Shown here in pieces: positions 12,647-63,740 of a stretch of 64,000 bases of DNA; position 1 is the stretch's first letter; the number at the start of each line of letters is the position of its first letter. A program made the position numbers and the translations under genes. Source of the stretch: a virus (taxonomy: Duplodnaviria; Heunggongvirae; Uroviricota; Caudoviricetes); the IMG/VR virus record IMGVR_UViG_2548876947_000004. One strand, 5' to 3'. The notes under the pieces are model-generated. The model was given only the letters and a program-made list of their open reading frames with translations, was not told where the DNA came from and did not search any database.

Positions 12647-12663
12647 TTAAACAAATAATGCTC
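12647..12663 (+). promoter_or_regulatory. C1 repressor operator (Op51-like) upstream of c4-icd-ant
   Basis: AATGCTCTAATAAATTT, 16/17 match to the P1 C1 operator consensus ATTGCTCTAATAAATTT. Confidence 0.7.
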
Positions 12664-12857
12664 TAATAAATTTGTCTTTTTAAGTCACGAATGCTATCTT
12701 TTCGCATCATATTGACCTTTTAATCGTTCAGGCTTATAGTTCCGCCGTCGTAGCAAATTCTGCGACCGGGTTTAGCAGCCTGAATACTTACGCGGACAAC
12801 CGCAGATTTCCGATATTGCGGTATTTTTGTGTCCGTAAACCACGTTACGCCCGAATT

Positions 12858-12940
12858 ATGGTGGGGCGTGATGGGGAGGCTTCGGCCTGCTGGTTTCGTA
12901 AGTGCCAGTCTGCTAACCCCGTCACGTCCTGCCACCTGTT
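12858..12940 (+). ncRNA. c4: c4-like antisense RNA (immI regulator), copy 1
   Basis: Between operator and icd: 10-bp closing stem (cgtgatgggg / ccccgtcacg, one G-U) around two hairpins (aggc-ttcg-gcct; ctgg-tttcgtaagtg-ccag). Loop tttcgtaagt is complementary to acttacgagg covering the icd SD at 12967-12976. Boundaries approximate. Confidence 0.45.
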
Positions 12941-12985
12941 TAGCAGCGGGTCGCAGGTTGTTTATCAACTTACGAGGCCGTAACT

Positions 12986-13207
12986 ATGGTTAATGCCAAT
13001 CCTTGCGCACGCCAAGAATTCATCTGGCGTTTCTATTCCTGTAAAAAACACCACTATCACTTCGTTATCGCAGCAACAGAAGACGAAGCACGCTCTCAAT
13101 TGCCTGATGGCCCCTGCATTTTTACTGCCCGTTTTTCAACTAACTCGCGCAATTCACTTAGTTACTGGAGCCTCCCCTTCTCTGCCGACGTTCAGGGGGG
13201 TTTATGA
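12986..13207 (+). CDS. icd: Icd-like small protein (73 aa)
   Basis: 73-aa ORF directly upstream of and overlapping (ATGA) the antirepressor gene; a second divergent copy is at 61200..61421. Confidence 0.6.
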   Translation: MVNANPCARQEFIWRFYSCKKHHYHFVIAATEDEARSQLPDGPCIFTARFSTNSRNSLSYWSLPFSADVQGGL

Positions 13208-14238
13208 AAACACCTCTCGTCACCCGTAATGAAATAGCCGAAGCGATCGCCTTGCATACTGCCTGTATGCCGACACGGGAGATCCCCGGCGCAATTGCTA
13301 ACTATTTCATGATAACCAGACGTTTTTATACCCGAACAGATAAGGCTGTGATCAACAGGCTACTGATAGCCGAGATCAGGGATTATTTGATTGAACAAGG
13401 ACGTCTACGTTACGCAACAGTGGCAGCAGAAATGAGAAAGGAGGCACATAGAATGACCGGTAATAATTTAAATGTTGAAAAACCAGCACCTGTTGCTTCA
13501 GCTACGCCAGCACCAGCCCTGAATGTCATCCCCAACACCGGAGACACAATCGACAGCCAAACATTGTTGAAGATGGTCAATGAGGCACGGAAATTATGTA
13601 GCGAAAAACCAGTTCGCAACAATGATTTCATTGCCAGAGTTAAGGATGAGCTTGAAGGAGAAACCTACGAAATTTTCGTAGGTCAAAAAAACGGCGCAGA
13701 AATAGATATTATAACCATGACCTACAAACAAGCCCTGCGAGTTGCCGCGCGCGAGTCAAAAGCGGTCCGCCGTTCGCTGATCGACAAACTGGAAGAATTA
13801 CAGCAGGCAAACTCCCCTACCCCATCGATCCCCAAGACATTACCAGAAGCCCTACGCCTGGCTGCCGAGTTAGCAGAACAGAAAATGCAGTTGGAACAAC
13901 AGCTGGTGGCCGCAGCCCCTAAAGTCGATTTTGCCGACCGGGTATCAGTGGCCAATGGAATCCTGATCGGGAACTTTGCAAAGGTCGTTGGACTTAAGCA
14001 AAACGCCCTTTTCTCATGGTTGCGCCAGAACGGCATTCTCATGGCTTTTGGTGCGCGCAAAAACGTACCGCGCCAACAGTACATCAACGCCGGGTATTTC
14101 ACGGTGAAAGAAGTTGTGCTGGATGATGAAAATGGCTACCAGATACGGCTGACGCCCCAATTAACGGGTAAAGGCCAGCAGTGGTTAACTCGCAAGCTAC
14201 TTGATGCTGGTTTGTTAAAACCAGTAGCAATAGGTTAA
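13204..14238 (+). CDS. ant: Antirepressor Ant (344 aa)
   Basis: C-terminal ~140 aa (...LPEALRLAAELAEQK...PKVDFADRVSVA...GKGQQWLTRKLLDAGLL) is the conserved phage antirepressor C-terminal domain; immI context. Confidence 0.7.
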   Translation: MKTPLVTRNEIAEAIALHTACMPTREIPGAIANYFMITRRFYTRTDKAVINRLLIAEIRDYLIEQGRLRYATVAAEMRKEAHRMTGNNLNVEKPAPVASATPAPALNVIPNTGDTIDSQTLLKMVNEARKLCSEKPVRNNDFIARVKDELEGETYEIFVGQKNGAEIDIITMTYKQALRVAARESKAVRRSLIDKLEELQQANSPTPSIPKTLPEALRLAAELAEQKMQLEQQLVAAAPKVDFADRVSVANGILIGNFAKVVGLKQNALFSWLRQNGILMAFGARKNVPRQQYINAGYFTVKEVVLDDENGYQIRLTPQLTGKGQQWLTRKLLDAGLLKPVAIG

Positions 14239-16374: not shown

Positions 16375-16497
16375 TACAATCGTTGCGGGTGCTTGAGGCT
16401 ATCTGCTTCAGGCATTACCCGAAAAGCAGATAGAAGAAAGCCCCAGATAACATTACGCGTCCTGCAAGACGCTTAACATTAATCTGAGGCCATATCT

Positions 16498-16704
16498 ATG
16501 CTTAGCATACGTAGATTAGCCTCTTACCGACCAAAAGGTCAAGGAGAAGCAGGCTATGAAGCAGCAAAAAGCGATGTTAATCGCTCTGATCGTCATCTGT
16601 TTAACCGTCATTGTGACGGCACTGGTAACGAGGAAAGACCTCTGCGAGGTACGAATCCGAACCGGCCAGACGGAGGTCACTGTCTTCACAGCCTACGAAT
16701 CTGA
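16498..16704 (+). CDS. mok-like overlapping reading frame of the hok locus
   Basis: 68-aa ORF overlapping the hok-like gene in another frame, as in hok/mok/sok loci. Confidence 0.3.
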   Translation: MLSIRRLASYRPKGQGEAGYEAAKSDVNRSDRHLFNRHCDGTGNEERPLRGTNPNRPDGGHCLHSLRI

Positions 16705-33582: not shown

Positions 33583-33658
33583 GATGGTGTAGCTCAGTGG
33601 TTAGAGCGGTTGACTGTTAATCAACGGGTCGATGGTTCAAATCCATCCACCATCGCCA
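33583..33658 (+). tRNA. tRNA-Asn (anticodon GTT)
   Basis: Cloverleaf folds by hand: acceptor GATGGTG/CACCATC, D-arm GCTC-AGTGGTTA-GAGC, anticodon loop CTGTTAA, T-arm GATGG-TTCAAAT-CCATC, discriminator G, CCA encoded. Confidence 0.85.
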
Positions 33659-33660
33659 AT

Positions 33661-33736
33661 GCCGGTTTAGCTCAGTTGGTAGAGCGCCTGCCTTGTAAGC
33701 AGGATGTCAGCGGTTCGAGTCCGTTAACCGGCACCA
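33661..33736 (+). tRNA. tRNA-Thr (anticodon TGT)
   Basis: Acceptor GCCGGTT/AACCGGC, D-arm GCTC-AGTTGGTA-GAGC, anticodon stem CCTGC/GCAGG with loop CTTGTAA, T-loop TTCGAGT, CCA encoded; 2 nt after tRNA-Asn. Confidence 0.85.
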
Positions 33737-35180: not shown

Positions 35181-35256
35181 GGCCCCTTAGCTCAGTGGTT
35201 AGAGCTGGCGACTCATAATCGCACGGTCACCGGTTCAAGTCCGGTAGGGGCCACCA
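35181..35256 (+). tRNA. tRNA-Ile2-like (anticodon CAT, lysidine type; could alternatively be read as Met)
   Basis: GGCCCCTTAGCTCAGTGGTTAGAGC...CTCATAA...GGTTCAAGTCC...AGGGGCCACCA closely resembles bacterial tRNA-Ile(CAU) as I recall it; one mismatch at the top of the anticodon stem. Confidence 0.75.
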
Positions 35257-58182: not shown

Positions 58183-59376
58183 GTGACCTGGGACGATCAC
58201 AAGAAGAATTTTGCTCGCCTGGCGCGAGATGGTGGTTACACCATCGCACAGTATGCCGCCGAGTTTAATCTTAACCCTAATACTGCACGTCGTTATCTCC
58301 GTGCCTTCAAAGAAGACACCAGGACAGCGGACAGCCGCAAGCCAAATAAGCCAGTCAGGAAGCCACTAAAAAGCATGATCATTGATCACTCTAATGATCA
58401 ACATGCAGGTAATCACATTGCGGCTGAAATAGCGGAAAAACAAAGGGTTAATGCCGTTGTCAGTGCCGCAGTCGAGAATGCGAAGCGCCAAAATAAGCGC
58501 ATAAATGATCGTTCTGATGATCATGACGTGATCACCCGCGCCCACCGGACCTTACGAGATCGCCTGGAACGCGACACCTTGGATGATGATGGTGAACGCT
58601 TTGAATTCGAAGCTGGCGATTACCTGATAGATAACGTTGAAGCGCGGAAGGCCGCGCGCGCTATGTTGCGTCGGTCCGGGGCCGATGTTCTGGAAACCAC
58701 TCTTCTGGAAAAGTCTCTTTCTCATCTCCTTATGCTGGAGAACGCCAGGGATACGTGTATTCGCCTGGTGCAGGAAATGCGCGATCAGCAAAAAGACGAT
58801 GATGAAGGTACTCCGCCTGAATACCGTATCGCGAGCATGCTAAACAGCTGTTCCGCGCAGATAAGCAGTCTGATCAACACCATTTACAGCATCCGGAATA
58901 ACTATCGAAAAGAAAGCCGGGAGGCGGAAAAGCACGCTTTATCTATGGGGCAAGCTGGCATTGTTAAGCTGGCATACGAACGAAAGCGTGAAAATAACTG
59001 GTCAGTGCTGGAAGCAGCTGAATTCATCGAGGCGCATGGCGGGAAAGTGCCGCCCCTGATGCTGGAGCAAATCAAAGCCGATCTGCGTGCTCCTAAGACC
59101 AATACCGATGATGAGGAAAGGCAAACAGCCGTCGGTGGCCCTTCTCTTGAAGATCTGGACAAAGTTGCGCGAGAACGGGCCGCCAACCGCCGCGCCGATG
59201 CCGCATTGTGGATTGAGCAGCGTAGGGAAGAAATCGCCGATATCGTTGATACAGGCGGTTATGGAGATGTTGATACTGAAGGTGTATCAAACGACCCATG
59301 GCTGGAACAAGACCTGGACGAAGACGAGGAGGAAGACGAAGAAGTTACCCGCAAGCTATACGGGGATGATGATTAA
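58183..59376 (+). CDS. pacA: Terminase small (pac-recognition) subunit (397 aa)
   Basis: Contains the pac-type hexamer clusters internally; acidic C-terminus; followed by overlapping large subunit. Confidence 0.75.
58377..58534 (+). promoter_or_regulatory. pac packaging site: two clusters of TGATC(A/G) hexamers
   Basis: TGATCA x3 at 58377-58400 and TGATCG/TGATCA/TGATCA at 58506-58534, each containing a Dam GATC site, about 105 bp apart inside pacA. Confidence 0.6.
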
Positions 59377-60860
59377 TGGCCAGAAGTTGCGTAACGGATC
59401 CTCGTTGGCGCGAGCTGGTGGCGCTATATCGTTATGACTGGATTGCTGCCGCTGATGTTTTGTTCGGCAAAACACCTACCTGGCAGCAGGATCTGATTAT
59501 TGAGTCTGTGCAGGAACAGGGTAGCAAGACATCTGTTTCGTCTGGTCACGGTACCGGGAAATCAGACATGACTTCTATCATGATCATGTTGTTCATAATC
59601 ATGTATCCCGGTGCCCGCGCCATTATCGTTGCGAACAAAATTCAGCAGGTAATGACCGGTATATTCAAGTACATCAAGATAAACTGGGCTACTGCCACCA
59701 GCCGTTTTCCATGGCTTGCTGATTATTTTGTTCTGACAGAAACCGCTTTCTATGAGGTTACTGGTAAAGGTGTATGGACTGTAGTACCGAAGGGCTTTCG
59801 TCTGGGAAGTGAAGAAGCTCTCGCCGGTGAACACGCAGATCATCTTCTGTATATTATCGATGAAGCCTCCGGTGTCAGTGATAGAGCTTTCGGTATCATC
59901 ACCGGTGCTCTTACCGGACAGGATAACCGCATCTTATTGCTGTCACAGCCTACACGCCCAAGCGGCTATTTCTACGATACTCACCATAAACTGGCCAAGC
60001 GTCCTGGTAACCCTGATGGCGTTTATACGGCGATCACGCTTAACAGTGAGGAATCACCGCTGGTAACGCCAGCATTTATCAAAATGAAGCTGGCGGAGTA
60101 CGGCGGGCGCGATAACCCTATGTACATGATTAAGGTACGCGGCCTATTCCCTAAATCACAGGATGGCTTCCTTCTTGGACGTGATGAGGTTGAACGTGCA
60201 ACGCGGCGGAAAGTCAAGATTGCCAAAGGATGGGGCTGGCTTGCATGTGTGGACGTTGCTGGTGGTACGGGAAGGGATAAGTCCGTTATCAATATCATGA
60301 TGGTGTCCGGCCAGCGAAACAAACGCCGTGTAATCAACTATCGAATGCTGGAATACACAGACGTTACAGAAACGCAGCTTGCCGCCAAAATTTTCGCAGA
60401 ATGTAATCCTGAGCGATTCCCCAATATCACCATAGCGATAGATGGCGATGGCCTGGGTAAAGCAACAGCGGATCTGATGTACGAGTATTATGGTATTACC
60501 GTACAGCGTATACGCTGGGGTAAAAAGATGCATAGCCGTGAAGATAAGAGCCTGTACTTTGATAAACGTGCTTATGCCAACGTTAAAGCCGCAGAGGCCG
60601 TAAAATCTGGTCGTATGAGACTGGATAAGGGTAATGAAACTATTGAGGAAGCGTCGAAAATCCCTGTAGGGATTAACTCCGCAGGTCAATGGAAGGTGAT
60701 GAGTAAGGAGGATATGAAGAAAAAACTCAACCTGCACTCACCAGACCATTGGGATACATATTGTTTCGCTATACTGGCGGATTATGTTCCCCAGGATGAA
60801 GTGCTTAGCGTCGAAGACGAAGCGCAGGTTGATGAAGCTCTGGCATGGCTTAATGAATGA
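59376..60860 (+). CDS. pacB: Terminase large subunit (494 aa)
   Basis: ATG overlaps the pacA stop; Walker-A-like SGHGTGKS; terminase-like acidic motifs. Confidence 0.8.
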
Positions 60861-60865
60861 ATATT

Positions 60866-60882
60866 TGCTCTAATAAATTGTG
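60866..60882 (+). promoter_or_regulatory. C1 operator upstream of the second c4-icd-ant-like module
   Basis: TTTGCTCTAATAAATTG, 15/17 match, 5 bp after the pacB stop. Confidence 0.65.
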
Positions 60883-61059
60883 TTTTTTAGCTGCCGATGT
60901 TACATTGAACCTGACCTCTTGCGCCTTGAGGCATTTTCGGTTTATGCTTATCAGGCACCTCATTAAAACGGGTGCCGGGATTGGCCTCCCGCTTAAGTCT
61001 AAGGCGATACAGACGCCGCTCGCGTCTTTTTTTTGTATCGGCGTACACGCACACCTCTA

Positions 61060-61140
61060 CAATGGTGGGCTGTATGGGGCTACCTTCGGGTAGGCTGGTT
61101 ACCTTGGACGCCAGTAAGGCCAACTCCGTACAGTCCACCG
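61060..61140 (+). ncRNA. c4-like antisense RNA, copy 2 (divergent sequence, same architecture)
   Basis: Closing stem ctgtatgg/ccgtacag around hairpins ctacc-ttcg-ggtag and ctgg-ttaccttggacg-ccag; loop ccttggacg is complementary (9 bp, one G-U) to cgtctaagg covering the SD of the downstream icd-like gene (61180-61188). Confidence 0.4.
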
Positions 61141-61199
61141 CCAGCAAGATTGGTCTCTTCTGCGGTGGTTACATACCAACGTCTAAGGAGGCTGCCAAT

Positions 61200-61421
61200 A
61201 TGGCTACTATCCCTACCCCAACTCATCCTGAATTTATCTGGCGCTTTTACTCCTGCCAAAAACGTCACTATCACTTCGTTATTGCACCAACAGAAGATGA
61301 GGCCCGCTCTCAGCTTCCTGACGCCCCATGTATTTTCTCTGCCCGTTTTTCCACTGATTCACGCAATTCTCTCAGTTACTGGTGCCTCCCTGTTAACGCT
61401 TCTGCTCAGGAGGGACTATGA
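61200..61421 (+). CDS. Icd-like small protein, copy 2 (73 aa)
   Basis: MATIPTPTHPEFIWRFYSCQKRHYHFVIAPTEDEARSQLPD... is paralogous to the 12986..13207 product; SD AAGGAGG. Confidence 0.55.
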   Translation: MATIPTPTHPEFIWRFYSCQKRHYHFVIAPTEDEARSQLPDAPCIFSARFSTDSRNSLSYWCLPVNASAQEGL

Positions 61422-62536
61422 GAACGTCATTAGTCACCCGTGAAGAGATGATCGAGGCAATTGAACAGCACACTGCCTGTATCAGTACCAGGGATATACC
61501 AGGCGTTATTGCCAACTACTTCATGATCACCAAACAACTTTACCGGAGAAAGGACAAGAACGCGGTTCACCGTATCCTGTTGTCTGATATCCGCGAATAC
61601 CTGCTCGAACAGGGTCATCTGAATTACGCAACCGTCGCAGCCGAAGCACGCAAGGAGGCACACAGAATGAAAGCAACTAACGTTAAATCAGAAAAAATTC
61701 ATGCACCTTCAGTTCAGGAATCGGAGCTGGTGGTTGTTCAGAATCAGTCTGATGAAATTCCCGTTCTGGAATGGCAGGGAGTGCGTGTAGTGACAACCGA
61801 GACTCTTGCTAGAGGGTATGGGACAGAAACAATCCGTATTCGCCAAAATCATCATGAGAACAAAGTACGCTTTGTTGAAGGGAAGCACTTTTTCAAAGTT
61901 GAAGGAGAATCATTGCGCGAGTTGAAGCACAGAGTAGCTTTAAACTACTCTGTAAAAATTGCTCGCAATGTTCGCTCACTCACCCTCTGGACAGAACGCG
62001 GCGCAGCCCGCCACGCTAAAATGCTCGAAACCGATCAGGCATGGGCATTCTTTGAAAAACTGGAAGACAGCTACTTCCGACAAAAAGAACAGCAACCGAT
62101 CGCAATCCCCCAGACGCTTCCTGAAGCCCTACGCCTGGCTGCCGAACTGGCTGAACAAAAGCAACTTCTGGAACAGAAAGCCCACCAGCTAAATCAGCAG
62201 CTGGTGGCCGCCGCTCCTAAAGTCGATTTTGCCGACCGGGTATCAGTAGCTAAAGGGATCCTGATTGGGAATTTTGCAAAGGTTGTTGGACTTAAGCAAA
62301 ACGCGCTGTTTGTCTGGTTACGGGAGAACGGCATCCTGATAGCGTCCGGTGGACGTAAAAATGTGCCGTTCCAGCAGTACATCAACGCGGGGTATTTCAC
62401 GGTGAAAGAAGTGGTGCTGGATGATGAAGATGGCTACCAGATACGGTTGACGCCTCAATTAACGGGTAAAGGCCAGCAGTGGTTGACGCGTAAACTGCTC
62501 GATGCTGGCTTGTTAAAACCGGTGGCAGCTGAATAA
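61418..62536 (+). CDS. Antirepressor paralogue (372 aa) with Rha/ORF6N-like middle domain
   Basis: N-terminal ~85 aa and C-terminal ~140 aa paralogous to Ant at 13204..14238; the central region differs. Confidence 0.65.
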   Translation: MRTSLVTREEMIEAIEQHTACISTRDIPGVIANYFMITKQLYRRKDKNAVHRILLSDIREYLLEQGHLNYATVAAEARKEAHRMKATNVKSEKIHAPSVQESELVVVQNQSDEIPVLEWQGVRVVTTETLARGYGTETIRIRQNHHENKVRFVEGKHFFKVEGESLRELKHRVALNYSVKIARNVRSLTLWTERGAARHAKMLETDQAWAFFEKLEDSYFRQKEQQPIAIPQTLPEALRLAAELAEQKQLLEQKAHQLNQQLVAAAPKVDFADRVSVAKGILIGNFAKVVGLKQNALFVWLRENGILIASGGRKNVPFQQYINAGYFTVKEVVLDDEDGYQIRLTPQLTGKGQQWLTRKLLDAGLLKPVAAE

Positions 62537-62549
62537 TGGAAGAATGCCC

Positions 62550-62580
62550 GGTTGATGCCGGGCATAATTTATTGCGCGCT
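62550..62580. terminator. Bidirectional terminator between convergent antirepressor and c1
   Basis: atgcccgg-ttgatg-ccgggcat hairpin with A/T-rich flanks. Confidence 0.5.
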
Positions 62581-63420
62581 TTCGGGGTTGTCGTTTACTG
62601 GCTGCCCCTTCTTGGTTTTACGGCTGCGCGTAACTGATGCGGCTGACTTAACCTTTTTCTCTTCGCGAGTGATGGCAATTTGTTTTTTTACATTTTCAAT
62701 ATCTGCCAGGCGATATATTTTTGCTTGCGGCCAGCGGTCGCAGATGATCGGTTCTATGGAGTCATAAAGGCTAAATTTTGCTTTTTCGAATTCACCGTTG
62801 ATGATAATTCCATCACGGAGAGTTTCATCGCAGATAAACACGCCACACAGTGGCACATGGTAACTAACTGATTTACCATCATTGTAGTTAGGGCTACTGG
62901 AAATGTAGTGGACGCGCAGCATTGTTTCGCTAAAGCCGTGTACGCGCATACGGAATTTTTCATCCTCCGGGTACTGCCTCATTAGCTCTTTTGTTGCTTC
63001 CAGGTTCTCTATGTATTTCGCACTGTGCTCATTGATCCCCGCGCTTTTTTGGATGCGAATGTCCTTATCAATCAGATGAATAATGCGGCCAGCGGTCATG
63101 TTGACGCTGTTCACAGCTTCTGTCTGATAAGTTGTAACCTTGCGCACACCGCGAAGGATGTTAGGCACTGGATATAAAATAGTCTTTGGGATATTGAGGT
63201 CTGGGTACTGTTCCAGTTCCCGCGCCATTAAAGTCCATTTATCAATTTCAGCCTGAATGCTGTCAGTTTCTTTGAACGGTAGAACGACAACCGGGCGTAC
63301 AGGACGACCGTCGCTGGCTGTATCAACGTGTTGGGCGCGTGCAACAGCTTTTTTTAGAAAGAGATCCCTGAAGCTGACGAACTCCTGGTACAGTTGTTCG
63401 CCGTAGACATAATTTATCAT
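62569..63420 (-). CDS. c1: Primary immunity repressor C1 (283 aa)
   Basis: MINYVYGEQLYQEFVSFRDLFLKKAVARAQHVD... matches my recollection of P1 C1; cognate operators are abundant in the window. Confidence 0.9.
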   Translation of the reverse strand: MINYVYGEQLYQEFVSFRDLFLKKAVARAQHVDTASDGRPVRPVVVLPFKETDSIQAEIDKWTLMARELEQYPDLNIPKTILYPVPNILRGVRKVTTYQTEAVNSVNMTAGRIIHLIDKDIRIQKSAGINEHSAKYIENLEATKELMRQYPEDEKFRMRVHGFSETMLRVHYISSSPNYNDGKSVSYHVPLCGVFICDETLRDGIIINGEFEKAKFSLYDSIEPIICDRWPQAKIYRLADIENVKKQIAITREEKKVKSAASVTRSRKTKKGQPVNDNPESAQ

Positions 63421-63514: not shown

Positions 63515-63531
63515 AGATTTATTAGTGCATT
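63515..63531 (-). promoter_or_regulatory. C1 operator-like site upstream of c1 (Op99-type)
   Basis: Reverse complement AATGCACTAATAAATCT, 14/17. Confidence 0.5.
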
Positions 63532-63740
63532 TATTGTGAGTCTAACTGGTTAGTTGCCATGAGATATTCGATTGTGTCAGTGAGGTCATCCAGGTCGTCT
63601 TGGGTGATGCGGTACTCCTGATTGGATATCTTTGAGTAGTGTTCAGCAATGGCGCGGGCAGCGTCGGTTTCGGCAGGGTCTACAGATAAAGCGTTAGAGC
63701 AATGTCTAACGTCGTCGATGGTTGGTTGAATGAAAGCCAT
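63531..63740 (-). CDS. coi: C1 inactivator Coi (69 aa)
   Basis: 69-aa acidic ORF immediately upstream of c1 on the same strand. Confidence 0.75.
   Translation of the reverse strand: MAFIQPTIDDVRHCSNALSVDPAETDAARAIAEHYSKISNQEYRITQDDLDDLTDTIEYLMATNQLDSQ

Follow-up and report, generated by a model that had tools for sequence, protein, structure and literature searches.

The question raised by this locus is what occupies the interval between the terminase gene pacB and the repressor gene c1 in the IMG/VR virus record IMGVR_UViG_2548876947_000004, a P1-like phage-plasmid (Caudoviricetes) of which a stretch of 64,000 nucleotides was analysed (hereafter the window). In the reference P1 sequence (NC_005856), pacB ends at 93206 and c1 at 93231, leaving a gap of 24 bp, and the preliminary description of this DNA was correct in placing little between the two convergent genes in P1. 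In the window, where C1 is 99% identical to that of P1, the stop codons of these genes are separated by 1,708 bp (60861-62568), in agreement with the 1.7 kb noted in that description. Our analysis indicates that this interval (hereafter the module) is quite probably a complete second operon of the immI type, i.e. an independently specified cassette for immunity and anti-immunity, which comes in addition to the canonical immI operon holding its usual site between sim and kilA/repL in the same window. The coordinates of all features are collected in Table 1.

In P1, C1 represses the immI operon at its operator, the C4 RNA blocks icd and ant by way of the a2/b2 sites, and the Ant1/Ant2 proteins bind C1 (PMC8198154); the GenBank annotation of P1 (NC_005856) likewise records an Ant1/Ant2/C1 complex and describes a2/b2 as 'repression of icd ant translation'. 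Small differences within immI lead to the heteroimmunity of P1 and P7 (PMC6906374). The module is similar to immI of P1 and P7 in the order and spacing of its operator, two promoters, a1/b1 sites, C4 and a2/b2 sites over the icd ribosome-binding site, as well as in the ATGA coupling of icd and ant, the in-frame start for Ant2, the KilAC C-terminus and the conserved ends of Ant. However, it differs from them in its position between pacB and c1, in its leader, which scores as isrK where that of P1/P7 scores as c4-a1b1 (the latter model gives a weak overlapping match of 20.5 bits to the module leader), in the ORF6N middle of its Ant, and in the recognition segments of its C4.

At the head of the module stands a C1-operator-like site, which is placed relative to the promoter as the annotated Oc4 is to P2c4 in P1 and which is kept in all alleles. 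The window holds 12 such sites, compared with 0.27 expected by chance, and this one is predicted to be a C1 operator overlapping the promoter of the operon. Of the two promoter-like sites in this region, the second has a -10 hexamer that ends 6 nt ahead of the point at which the Rfam isrK match begins, with a predicted start near 60955. The isrK-type leader, whose match exceeds the gathering score of its family, ends in an intrinsic terminator and contains the upstream C4 targets. In the C4 RNA encoded downstream of it, segments a' and b' are complementary (over 7 and 8-9 nt) both to the upstream a1/b1 and to a2/b2 at the ribosome-binding site of icd, and b2 overlaps the Shine-Dalgarno sequence AAGGAGG of icd. 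The operator, the C4-like RNA and the icd-like gene had all been recognised in the preliminary description; the coordinates given there (61040-62536) leave out the upstream control region (60861-61040) with the isrK-type leader.

Some annotations overlapping the RNA genes may be mentioned here. An open reading frame (ORF) of 149 aa (60972-61421), which runs in frame from the leader via C4 into icd, is most likely an artefact of an RNA gene lying in frame with icd. PGAP places a 120-nt coding sequence for an 'ash family protein' over the C4 gene (61058-61180 in the window; L009:1722-1841 in NZ_CP040069). Further, in the prophage Gifsy-1 the first AUG of orf45 lies at +107 relative to the isrK start (PMC4825925); its counterpart in the window is the ATG at 61061, inside the 5' end of C4, and due to this the published orf45 may overlie a C4-like RNA.

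The protein-coding part of the module consists of icd and ant, the stop codon of the former overlapping the start of the latter (ATGA, 61418-61421). The module Icd and the canonical Icd of the window share 81% identity. For Ant, the overall identity to the canonical Ant1 is 56%; the N-terminal 84 and the C-terminal ~135 residues are conserved between the two copies, the C-terminal part being near-identical, and the middle is replaced. The preliminary description had spoken of a 372-aa antirepressor with an 'Rha/ORF6N-like' middle, of which the antirepressor and the ORF6N domain stand, whereas no Rha domain was found in this protein by the Pfam domain search; in the canonical Ant, KilAC is the sole Pfam domain. 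An RKEAHRM motif with a Shine-Dalgarno sequence upstream is present at the annotated ant2 start of P1, in both Ant proteins of the window and in all alleles examined. Icd with a coupled ant and an in-frame second start is present in the module, and two products (Ant1 and Ant2) are predicted. When ant of the other alleles is compared with the window gene, the ratio of nonsynonymous to synonymous substitution rates (dN/dS) is 0.18-0.45; the module ORFs are intact, and purifying selection acts on them.

The module and the canonical operon align over their whole length, and the module is, on this sequence evidence, a paralogue of the canonical immI operon. If the two operons carry different C4 specificities, then this should be seen in the segments by which C4 recognises its targets. 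The equivalents of a1, b1, a2 and b2 were extracted with the P1 GenBank annotation as guide. In P1, the a1/a2 target TTGACAG faces a' CTGTCAA and the b1/b2 target GTTAGTG faces b' CACTAAC; in P7, the corresponding pairs are TTAGCAG with CTGCTAA and GATTGTG with CACAATC. The canonical unit of the window has the P7-type pair TTAGCAG/CTGCTAA at the a sites, whereas its b pair, ACTTACG/CGTAAGT, is neither of the P1 nor of the P7 type, and hence one more specificity variant is found at the canonical site. The pacB-c1 unit differs from all of these, with a1/a2 TTGGCCT/TTGGTCT and a' AGGCCAA, b1/b2 target GTCTAAGG and b' CCTTGGAC. In a cross-pairing matrix, all C4 RNAs pair in full with their own targets (7/7 to 7/9 contiguous pairs), whereas the canonical C4 makes 5/2 contiguous pairs with the pacB-c1 targets and the pacB-c1 C4 makes 2/3 with the canonical ones. 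Based on these differing determinants and the little cross-pairing between them, the two immI operons of the window are predicted to be independently regulated. The canonical immI operon in the window, the differing C4 specificities, and the fact that the insertion is already common and documented (see below) are three points that escaped the preliminary description.

The pairings of C4 have been maintained by joint changes, as determined by counting pairs on an alignment of 16 sequences and comparing the scores with those of 500 shuffles. The fold of C4 itself is 100% paired, with 11 of its 27 pairs changed on both sides and a covariation of 0.426 compared with 0.188 for the shuffled alignments (reached in 0/500). 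For a'-a2, 100% are paired and 4/7 pairs are compensatory; for b'-b2, the corresponding values are 90% and 4/9, and the joint covariation score of these two pairings is 0.465 (0.154 shuffled), a value reached by none of the 500 shuffles. The upstream pairing b1-b' is similarly 100% paired, 5 of the 8 pairs having changed on both sides (covariation 0.440, 0.139 shuffled, 0/500 reaching it). All of these measures collapse when the pairing partners are slid by 1-3 columns. The a1-a' pairing is documented by the extracted sequences only, as a gap placed by MAFFT inside a1 of allele A blocks the counting of pairs. A whole-sequence prediction of RNA duplexes between each C4 and the leaders was also tried; it was uninformative because intramolecular structure is ignored in it, and it was replaced by the site-by-site comparison and pair counting. 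Without selection on pairing, the three-way consistency of the targets and the C4 loop would be difficult to account for, and the joint change of the C4 loops and both sets of targets among the alleles speaks strongly, at the level of sequence, for a functional antisense switch.

The alleles in question come from IMG/VR, which was scanned with the Ant protein and gave 79 loci, about 50 of them with pacB, icd, ant and c1 in the same arrangement. The leaders at the pacB-c1 site fall into at least four classes (A-D), each of which is self-consistent, the C4 loop co-varying with its targets both upstream and downstream. The window carries allele A, with the determinants given above. In allele B (RCS47, L034), the a target TTGAGAC is matched by a' GTCTCAA and the b target GTCAAAGG by b' CCTTTGAC; at the b'/b2 site, a change of G to U in CCUUGGAC together with one of U to A in GUCUAAGG would convert A to B. 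Allele C (L063) has the a target TTGGAAC and a' GTTCCAA with the b target and b' of allele B, and allele D (L078) combines the a target and a' of allele C with b target GCAAAAGG and b' CCTTTTGC. A sliding identity profile reveals two hypervariable cassettes in a frame that is 94-100% conserved, viz. the RNA specificity region (60950-61200), with 45-70% identity between allele classes, and the middle domain of Ant (61650-62050).

In regard to the second cassette, a P1-type Ant middle replaces ORF6N at the pacB-c1 site in L082 (2676-3731) and L091 (3001-4035), and the 469-aa Ant of pW46_1 (L010:1734-3143), at the canonical site, contains both middles in series, which suggests that the Ant middles are interchangeable parts of one protein family. 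Modules with an ORF6N-type icd-ant are also present before kilA, i.e. at the canonical site, and at a distance of 3-5 kb past c1 (loci L028+L057, L036+L067, L032+L077, L065/L072, L068 and L010). Several contigs hold two ORF6N-type copies, some of them in tandem, and due to this the number of immI-like operons in some P1-like elements may reach three.

The module is widespread among related plasmids. In PLSDB, 268 plasmids carry at least 80% of a 2-kb junction query and 616 carry the 3' kilobase of pacB (~44%), and among 5,426 complete E. coli genomes 279 have at least 80% of the module. In contrast, the matches of P1, P7 and phiW39 to the window break off at the pacB stop and resume at the c1 stop, pacB being joined straight to c1 in these phages. 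The synteny comparison of this junction proposed in the preliminary description thus finds the module absent from the reference P1 interval and common in P1-like plasmids; the module is extra, as was claimed there, in comparison to P1, P7 and phiW39, but that it was inserted is not established, given its presence in such a share of the pacB-bearing plasmids and its occurrence as alleles that have diverged deeply within a conserved frame. The 24-bp spacer of P1 has only ATGCCGG in common with the module, as far from the c1 stop as the right arm of the terminal hairpin is; this is too little to choose between gain and loss, and both the gain of the module in an ancestor and its loss in the P1 lineage are possible. 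Remnants of ant beside c1 were considered as a decay series from an ancestral module. In L004 (phi456), L005, L006 and L007, only the last 150-530 nt of ant are kept beside c1 (the phi456 record labels this stub 'Ant2'), following deletions, IS1-associated or other, that also took pacA/pacB. As the cases opened are all insertion sequence (IS)-associated or other large rearrangements, these remnants should not be interpreted as saying anything about P1 itself.

Of the explanation favoured here, the anatomy of the module, its homology and the covariation of its RNA pairings are observed in the sequences, and from them, by analogy with P1, we infer promoter use, RNA processing, an interaction of Ant with C1 and an ecological consequence. 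Transcription would start at the C1-controlled promoter and at the second promoter further downstream; many transcripts would end at the terminator of the isrK-type leader, and those reading on would yield the C4 RNA. The exposed a'/b' segments of C4 would then pair with a2/b2 on the mRNA of the same operon, covering the icd ribosome-binding site. C4 binding is also said, following Biere, Citron and Schuster in 1992, to trigger premature termination of transcription downstream. In a lysogen, C1 and the cognate C4 would hold Icd, Ant1 and Ant2 off, the Ant products remaining unmade together with Icd because ant is translationally coupled to icd. However, if the DNA enters a cell without cognate C4, then Ant would be made and would antagonise the C1 repressor; that Ant binds and inactivates C1 appears probable from the N- and C-terminal regions it has in common with P1 Ant and from the P1 annotation. 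As the two C4/target sets are predicted not to cross-react, the element would have two immunity specificities: a resident element would silence Ant in relatives of either type when these come in, and an invading one would escape the immunity of lysogens lacking either C4.

The following considerations weigh against this explanation. The ORF6N domain replaces the middle of Ant, so that the target could differ. The pairing matrix records contiguous complementarity only and is no gauge of cross-repression in vivo. Few independent events lie behind the covariation, viz. about four plasmid alleles and two chromosomal relatives. Lastly, a stricter consensus scan gave no promoter on the + strand in 60860-60960; the upstream promoters are weak matches, and the two reported here are based on collinearity with the annotated promoters of P1 and not on that scan.

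The first of these considerations leads to an alternative in which the module is a working antirepressor operon aimed at another repressor, of a resident prophage or satellite, and serves as a device for induction between elements. In addition to the ORF6N middle, which is not of the P1 type, it can be argued for this that in its leader and C4 the module resembles Stx lambdoid phages (~79% identity) and chromosomal P4-like satellites (84-87%) more than P1 immI, and that the isrK leader of Gifsy-1 controls AnrP, which acts on a lambdoid-type prophage circuit (PMC4825925). However, the N-terminal 84 and C-terminal ~135 residues of Ant are common to P1 Ant1/2, the latter near-identical; the P1-type middle occurs at the same site in two loci and both middles occur in the pW46_1 Ant; and the C1-operator-like site before the operon ties it to the P1 circuit. 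We therefore regard a different target as improbable.

It is similarly improbable that the module matters mainly by its position, with transcription of ant reading into the 3' end of c1 and lowering the repressor by collision or antisense RNA, a possibility raised in the preliminary description. The two genes do face each other, their stop codons being 32 bp apart, and the sole barrier is the hairpin that was already noticed there, which is 7 nt from the ant stop and 3 nt from that of c1 and is followed by imperfect U-tracts on both strands (AAUUUAUU and UCUUCCAUUAUU, both poor U-runs), so that some read-through is possible. However, this hairpin is stable (-18 kcal/mol on the + strand, -14.6 on the - strand) and invariant in 59 related loci (13 sequence variants), and the module adds two terminator-like hairpins between pacB and c1, the other being that of the leader. 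Further, pacAB of P1 already converge on c1 over 24 bp, and hence convergence is not specific to this arrangement, and as the same type of module is found before kilA and 3-5 kb beyond c1, its function should be independent of abutting c1. By analogy with P1 immI, the operator and C4 should keep ant near-silent in a lysogen, and read-through into c1 would then matter, if at all, after the switch has been flipped.

That the module is a decaying, non-functional hitch-hiker from recombination between P1-like elements is very improbable, for although ant 3' remnants lie beside c1 in phi456, pEC1515-2 and pLKSZ04, and an internal deletion (pEM20-18-50_2), a frameshifted annotation (vB_EcoM-673R5) and a Tn3 truncation (L009) are also seen, all ORFs and RNA elements of the window are intact, dN/dS is well under 1, the pairing has been preserved by three-way compensatory changes, and the truncated cases examined belong to elements that have undergone IS-mediated deletion or some other rearrangement; the module is retained in hundreds of plasmids.

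The second immI-type operon thus favoured is an extension of a well-understood system. Its mechanism is not new, and neither is the insertion, which Venturini et al. 2019 have described for pTZ20_1P and RCS47 (PMC6906374). The same module is present at the same junction in vB_EcoM-673R5 (99.3% identity), RCS47 (93%) and JL22 (89%), as well as in pTZ20_1P. The RCS47 record labels the gene 'ant', and PGAP names the module genes in hundreds of records. However, the records of RCS47, pTZ20_1P, JL22 and 673R5 annotate proteins only (ant, Roi, Icd, hypothetical) and not the C4 RNA, the isrK-type leader, the operator or the specificity, and RCS47 differs from the window in having the RNA determinants of allele B. 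In the literature searched for a 'second immI', a one-sentence mention in PMC6906374 was all that was found, the JL22 paper being silent; an entire second immI equipped with an operator and a C4 of its own, a specificity unlike that of the canonical immI of the same genome, and a multi-allelic site with compensatory changes were not found in the papers searched.

The leader and C4 also have relatives outside of P1-like elements. In isrK-orf45-anrP of Gifsy-1, an isrK leader with a leaky terminator precedes a short frame coupled by AUGA to the antirepressor gene (PMC4825925), and the module is similar to it in having an isrK-type leader followed by a short upstream frame coupled to an antirepressor gene. 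However, Gifsy-1 and the Stx phages are lambdoid prophages without a C1 operator, whereas the module is in a P1-like plasmid and has a C1-operator-like site; Gifsy-1 has a 45-codon frame where the module has icd, and in its published model IsrK is a trans activator, the activation of translation of the read-through mRNA by the short form of IsrK being known only for Gifsy-1 (PMC4825925). Leaders of this type are common in Stx-converting phages, in which the stretch of isrK and C4 is ~79% identical to the module, and LC710661 annotates both RNAs. In chromosomal P4-like satellites (integrase, AntA/AntB, 'ash', primase), the corresponding stretch is 84-87% identical (L011:3003-3272, L012:2977-3243), with the same a' AGGCCAA and a different b'. 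Cross-talk between P4-like satellites and P1-like plasmids is conceivable.

Table 1. Positions in the window of the module, its neighbours and the canonical immI operon
Feature	Position	Strand	Basis or remark
pacA	58183-59376	+	left of pacB
pacB, terminase subunit, left boundary of module	59376-60860	+	494-aa ORF; matching position annotated pacB in RCS47 and P1
C1-operator-like site, equivalent of P1 Oc4/Op51	60864-60880	+	TTTGCTCTAATAAATTG, 2 mismatches (15/17) to consensus ATTGCTCTAATAAATTT
Promoter-like site TTGTGT-17-TACATT overlapping operator, P1 P2c4 counterpart	60878-60906	+	by eye, collinear with annotated P2c4; putative
Second promoter-like site TTGCGC-18-TATGCT, counterpart of P1 P1c4 / isrK promoter	60919-60948	+	by eye; putative
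isrK-type leader	60955-61032	+	Rfam RF01394, 60.8 bits (gathering score 50)
Upstream C4 target a1 TTGGCCT	60981-60987	+	inside isrK-type leader
Upstream C4 target b1 GTCTAAGG	60997-61004	+	inside isrK-type leader
Leader terminator hairpin + T8	61011-61027	+	terminator scan; 3' end of isrK-type leader
C4 antisense RNA gene	61058-61145	+	Rfam RF01695, 75.9 bits (gathering score 45)
C4 recognition segment b', loop CCTTGGACG	61102-61110	+	
C4 recognition segment a' AGGCCAA	61117-61123	+	
Downstream C4 target a2 TTGGTCT	61150-61156	+	complementary to a'
Downstream C4 target b2 CGTCTAAGG	61180-61188	+	complementary to b'
icd-like gene, 73 aa	61200-61421	+	NCBIfam phage_ICD_like NF033153, 49.8 bits (threshold 25)
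ant, Ant1-like antirepressor, 372 aa	61418-62536	+	Pfam ORF6N + KilAC/ANT
Predicted in-frame Ant2-like product from Met84	61667-62536	+	Shine-Dalgarno AAGGAGG 61652-61658
Ant ORF6N domain, residues 116-202	61763-62023	+	PF10543, E 2e-19, 70.1 bits (threshold 27.8)
Ant KilAC/ANT domain, residues 260-361	62195-62500	+	PF03374, E 4.4e-31, 107.9 bits (threshold 25.3)
G+C-rich hairpin, candidate two-way terminator	62544-62565	.	9-pair stem, 6 G-C
c1 repressor gene, right boundary, presumed Ant target	62569-63420	-	NCBIfam phage_rep_C1 equivalog, 612 bits
coi	63531-63740	-	near c1
Canonical immI operon (operator, a1b1, C4, icd, ant1/2), comparator	12657-14238	+	Rfam + ORFs
Canonical operator	12657		
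Canonical a1b1 leader	12734-12786		Rfam c4-a1b1, 56.2 bits
Canonical C4	12854-12939		Rfam, 70.8 bits
kilA operator	14317		after ant1/2

Elsewhere in the window, Rfam matches include a sok antitoxin RNA of a hok/sok-type module (16387-16561) and three transfer RNA genes (33583-33655, 33661-33733 and 35181-35253).

In a broader context, the pacB-c1 site may be a multi-allelic 'second immunity lock', in which four or more C4/target alleles that do not pair with one another circulate together with exchangeable Ant middles. It would be shaped by an arms race between incompatible phage-plasmids, with antisense-RNA specificity serving to break the lysogeny of a competitor or to withstand such an attack, although we put this forward tentatively and are inclined slightly against it. 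Given the near-identity of the determinants in P4-like satellites and Stx phages, cross-talk of these elements with P1-like ones may also exist. P1-like phage-plasmids often carry resistance genes, and their coexistence, displacement and mutual induction depend on their immunity systems. If the second operon works as proposed above, then immunity typing of such elements would need at least two C4 specificities and not one, and elements with two or three operons would have a broader range of immunity and of 'anti-immunity'. In addition, the self-consistent series of alleles would constitute a natural set of orthogonal pairs of antisense RNAs and their targets.

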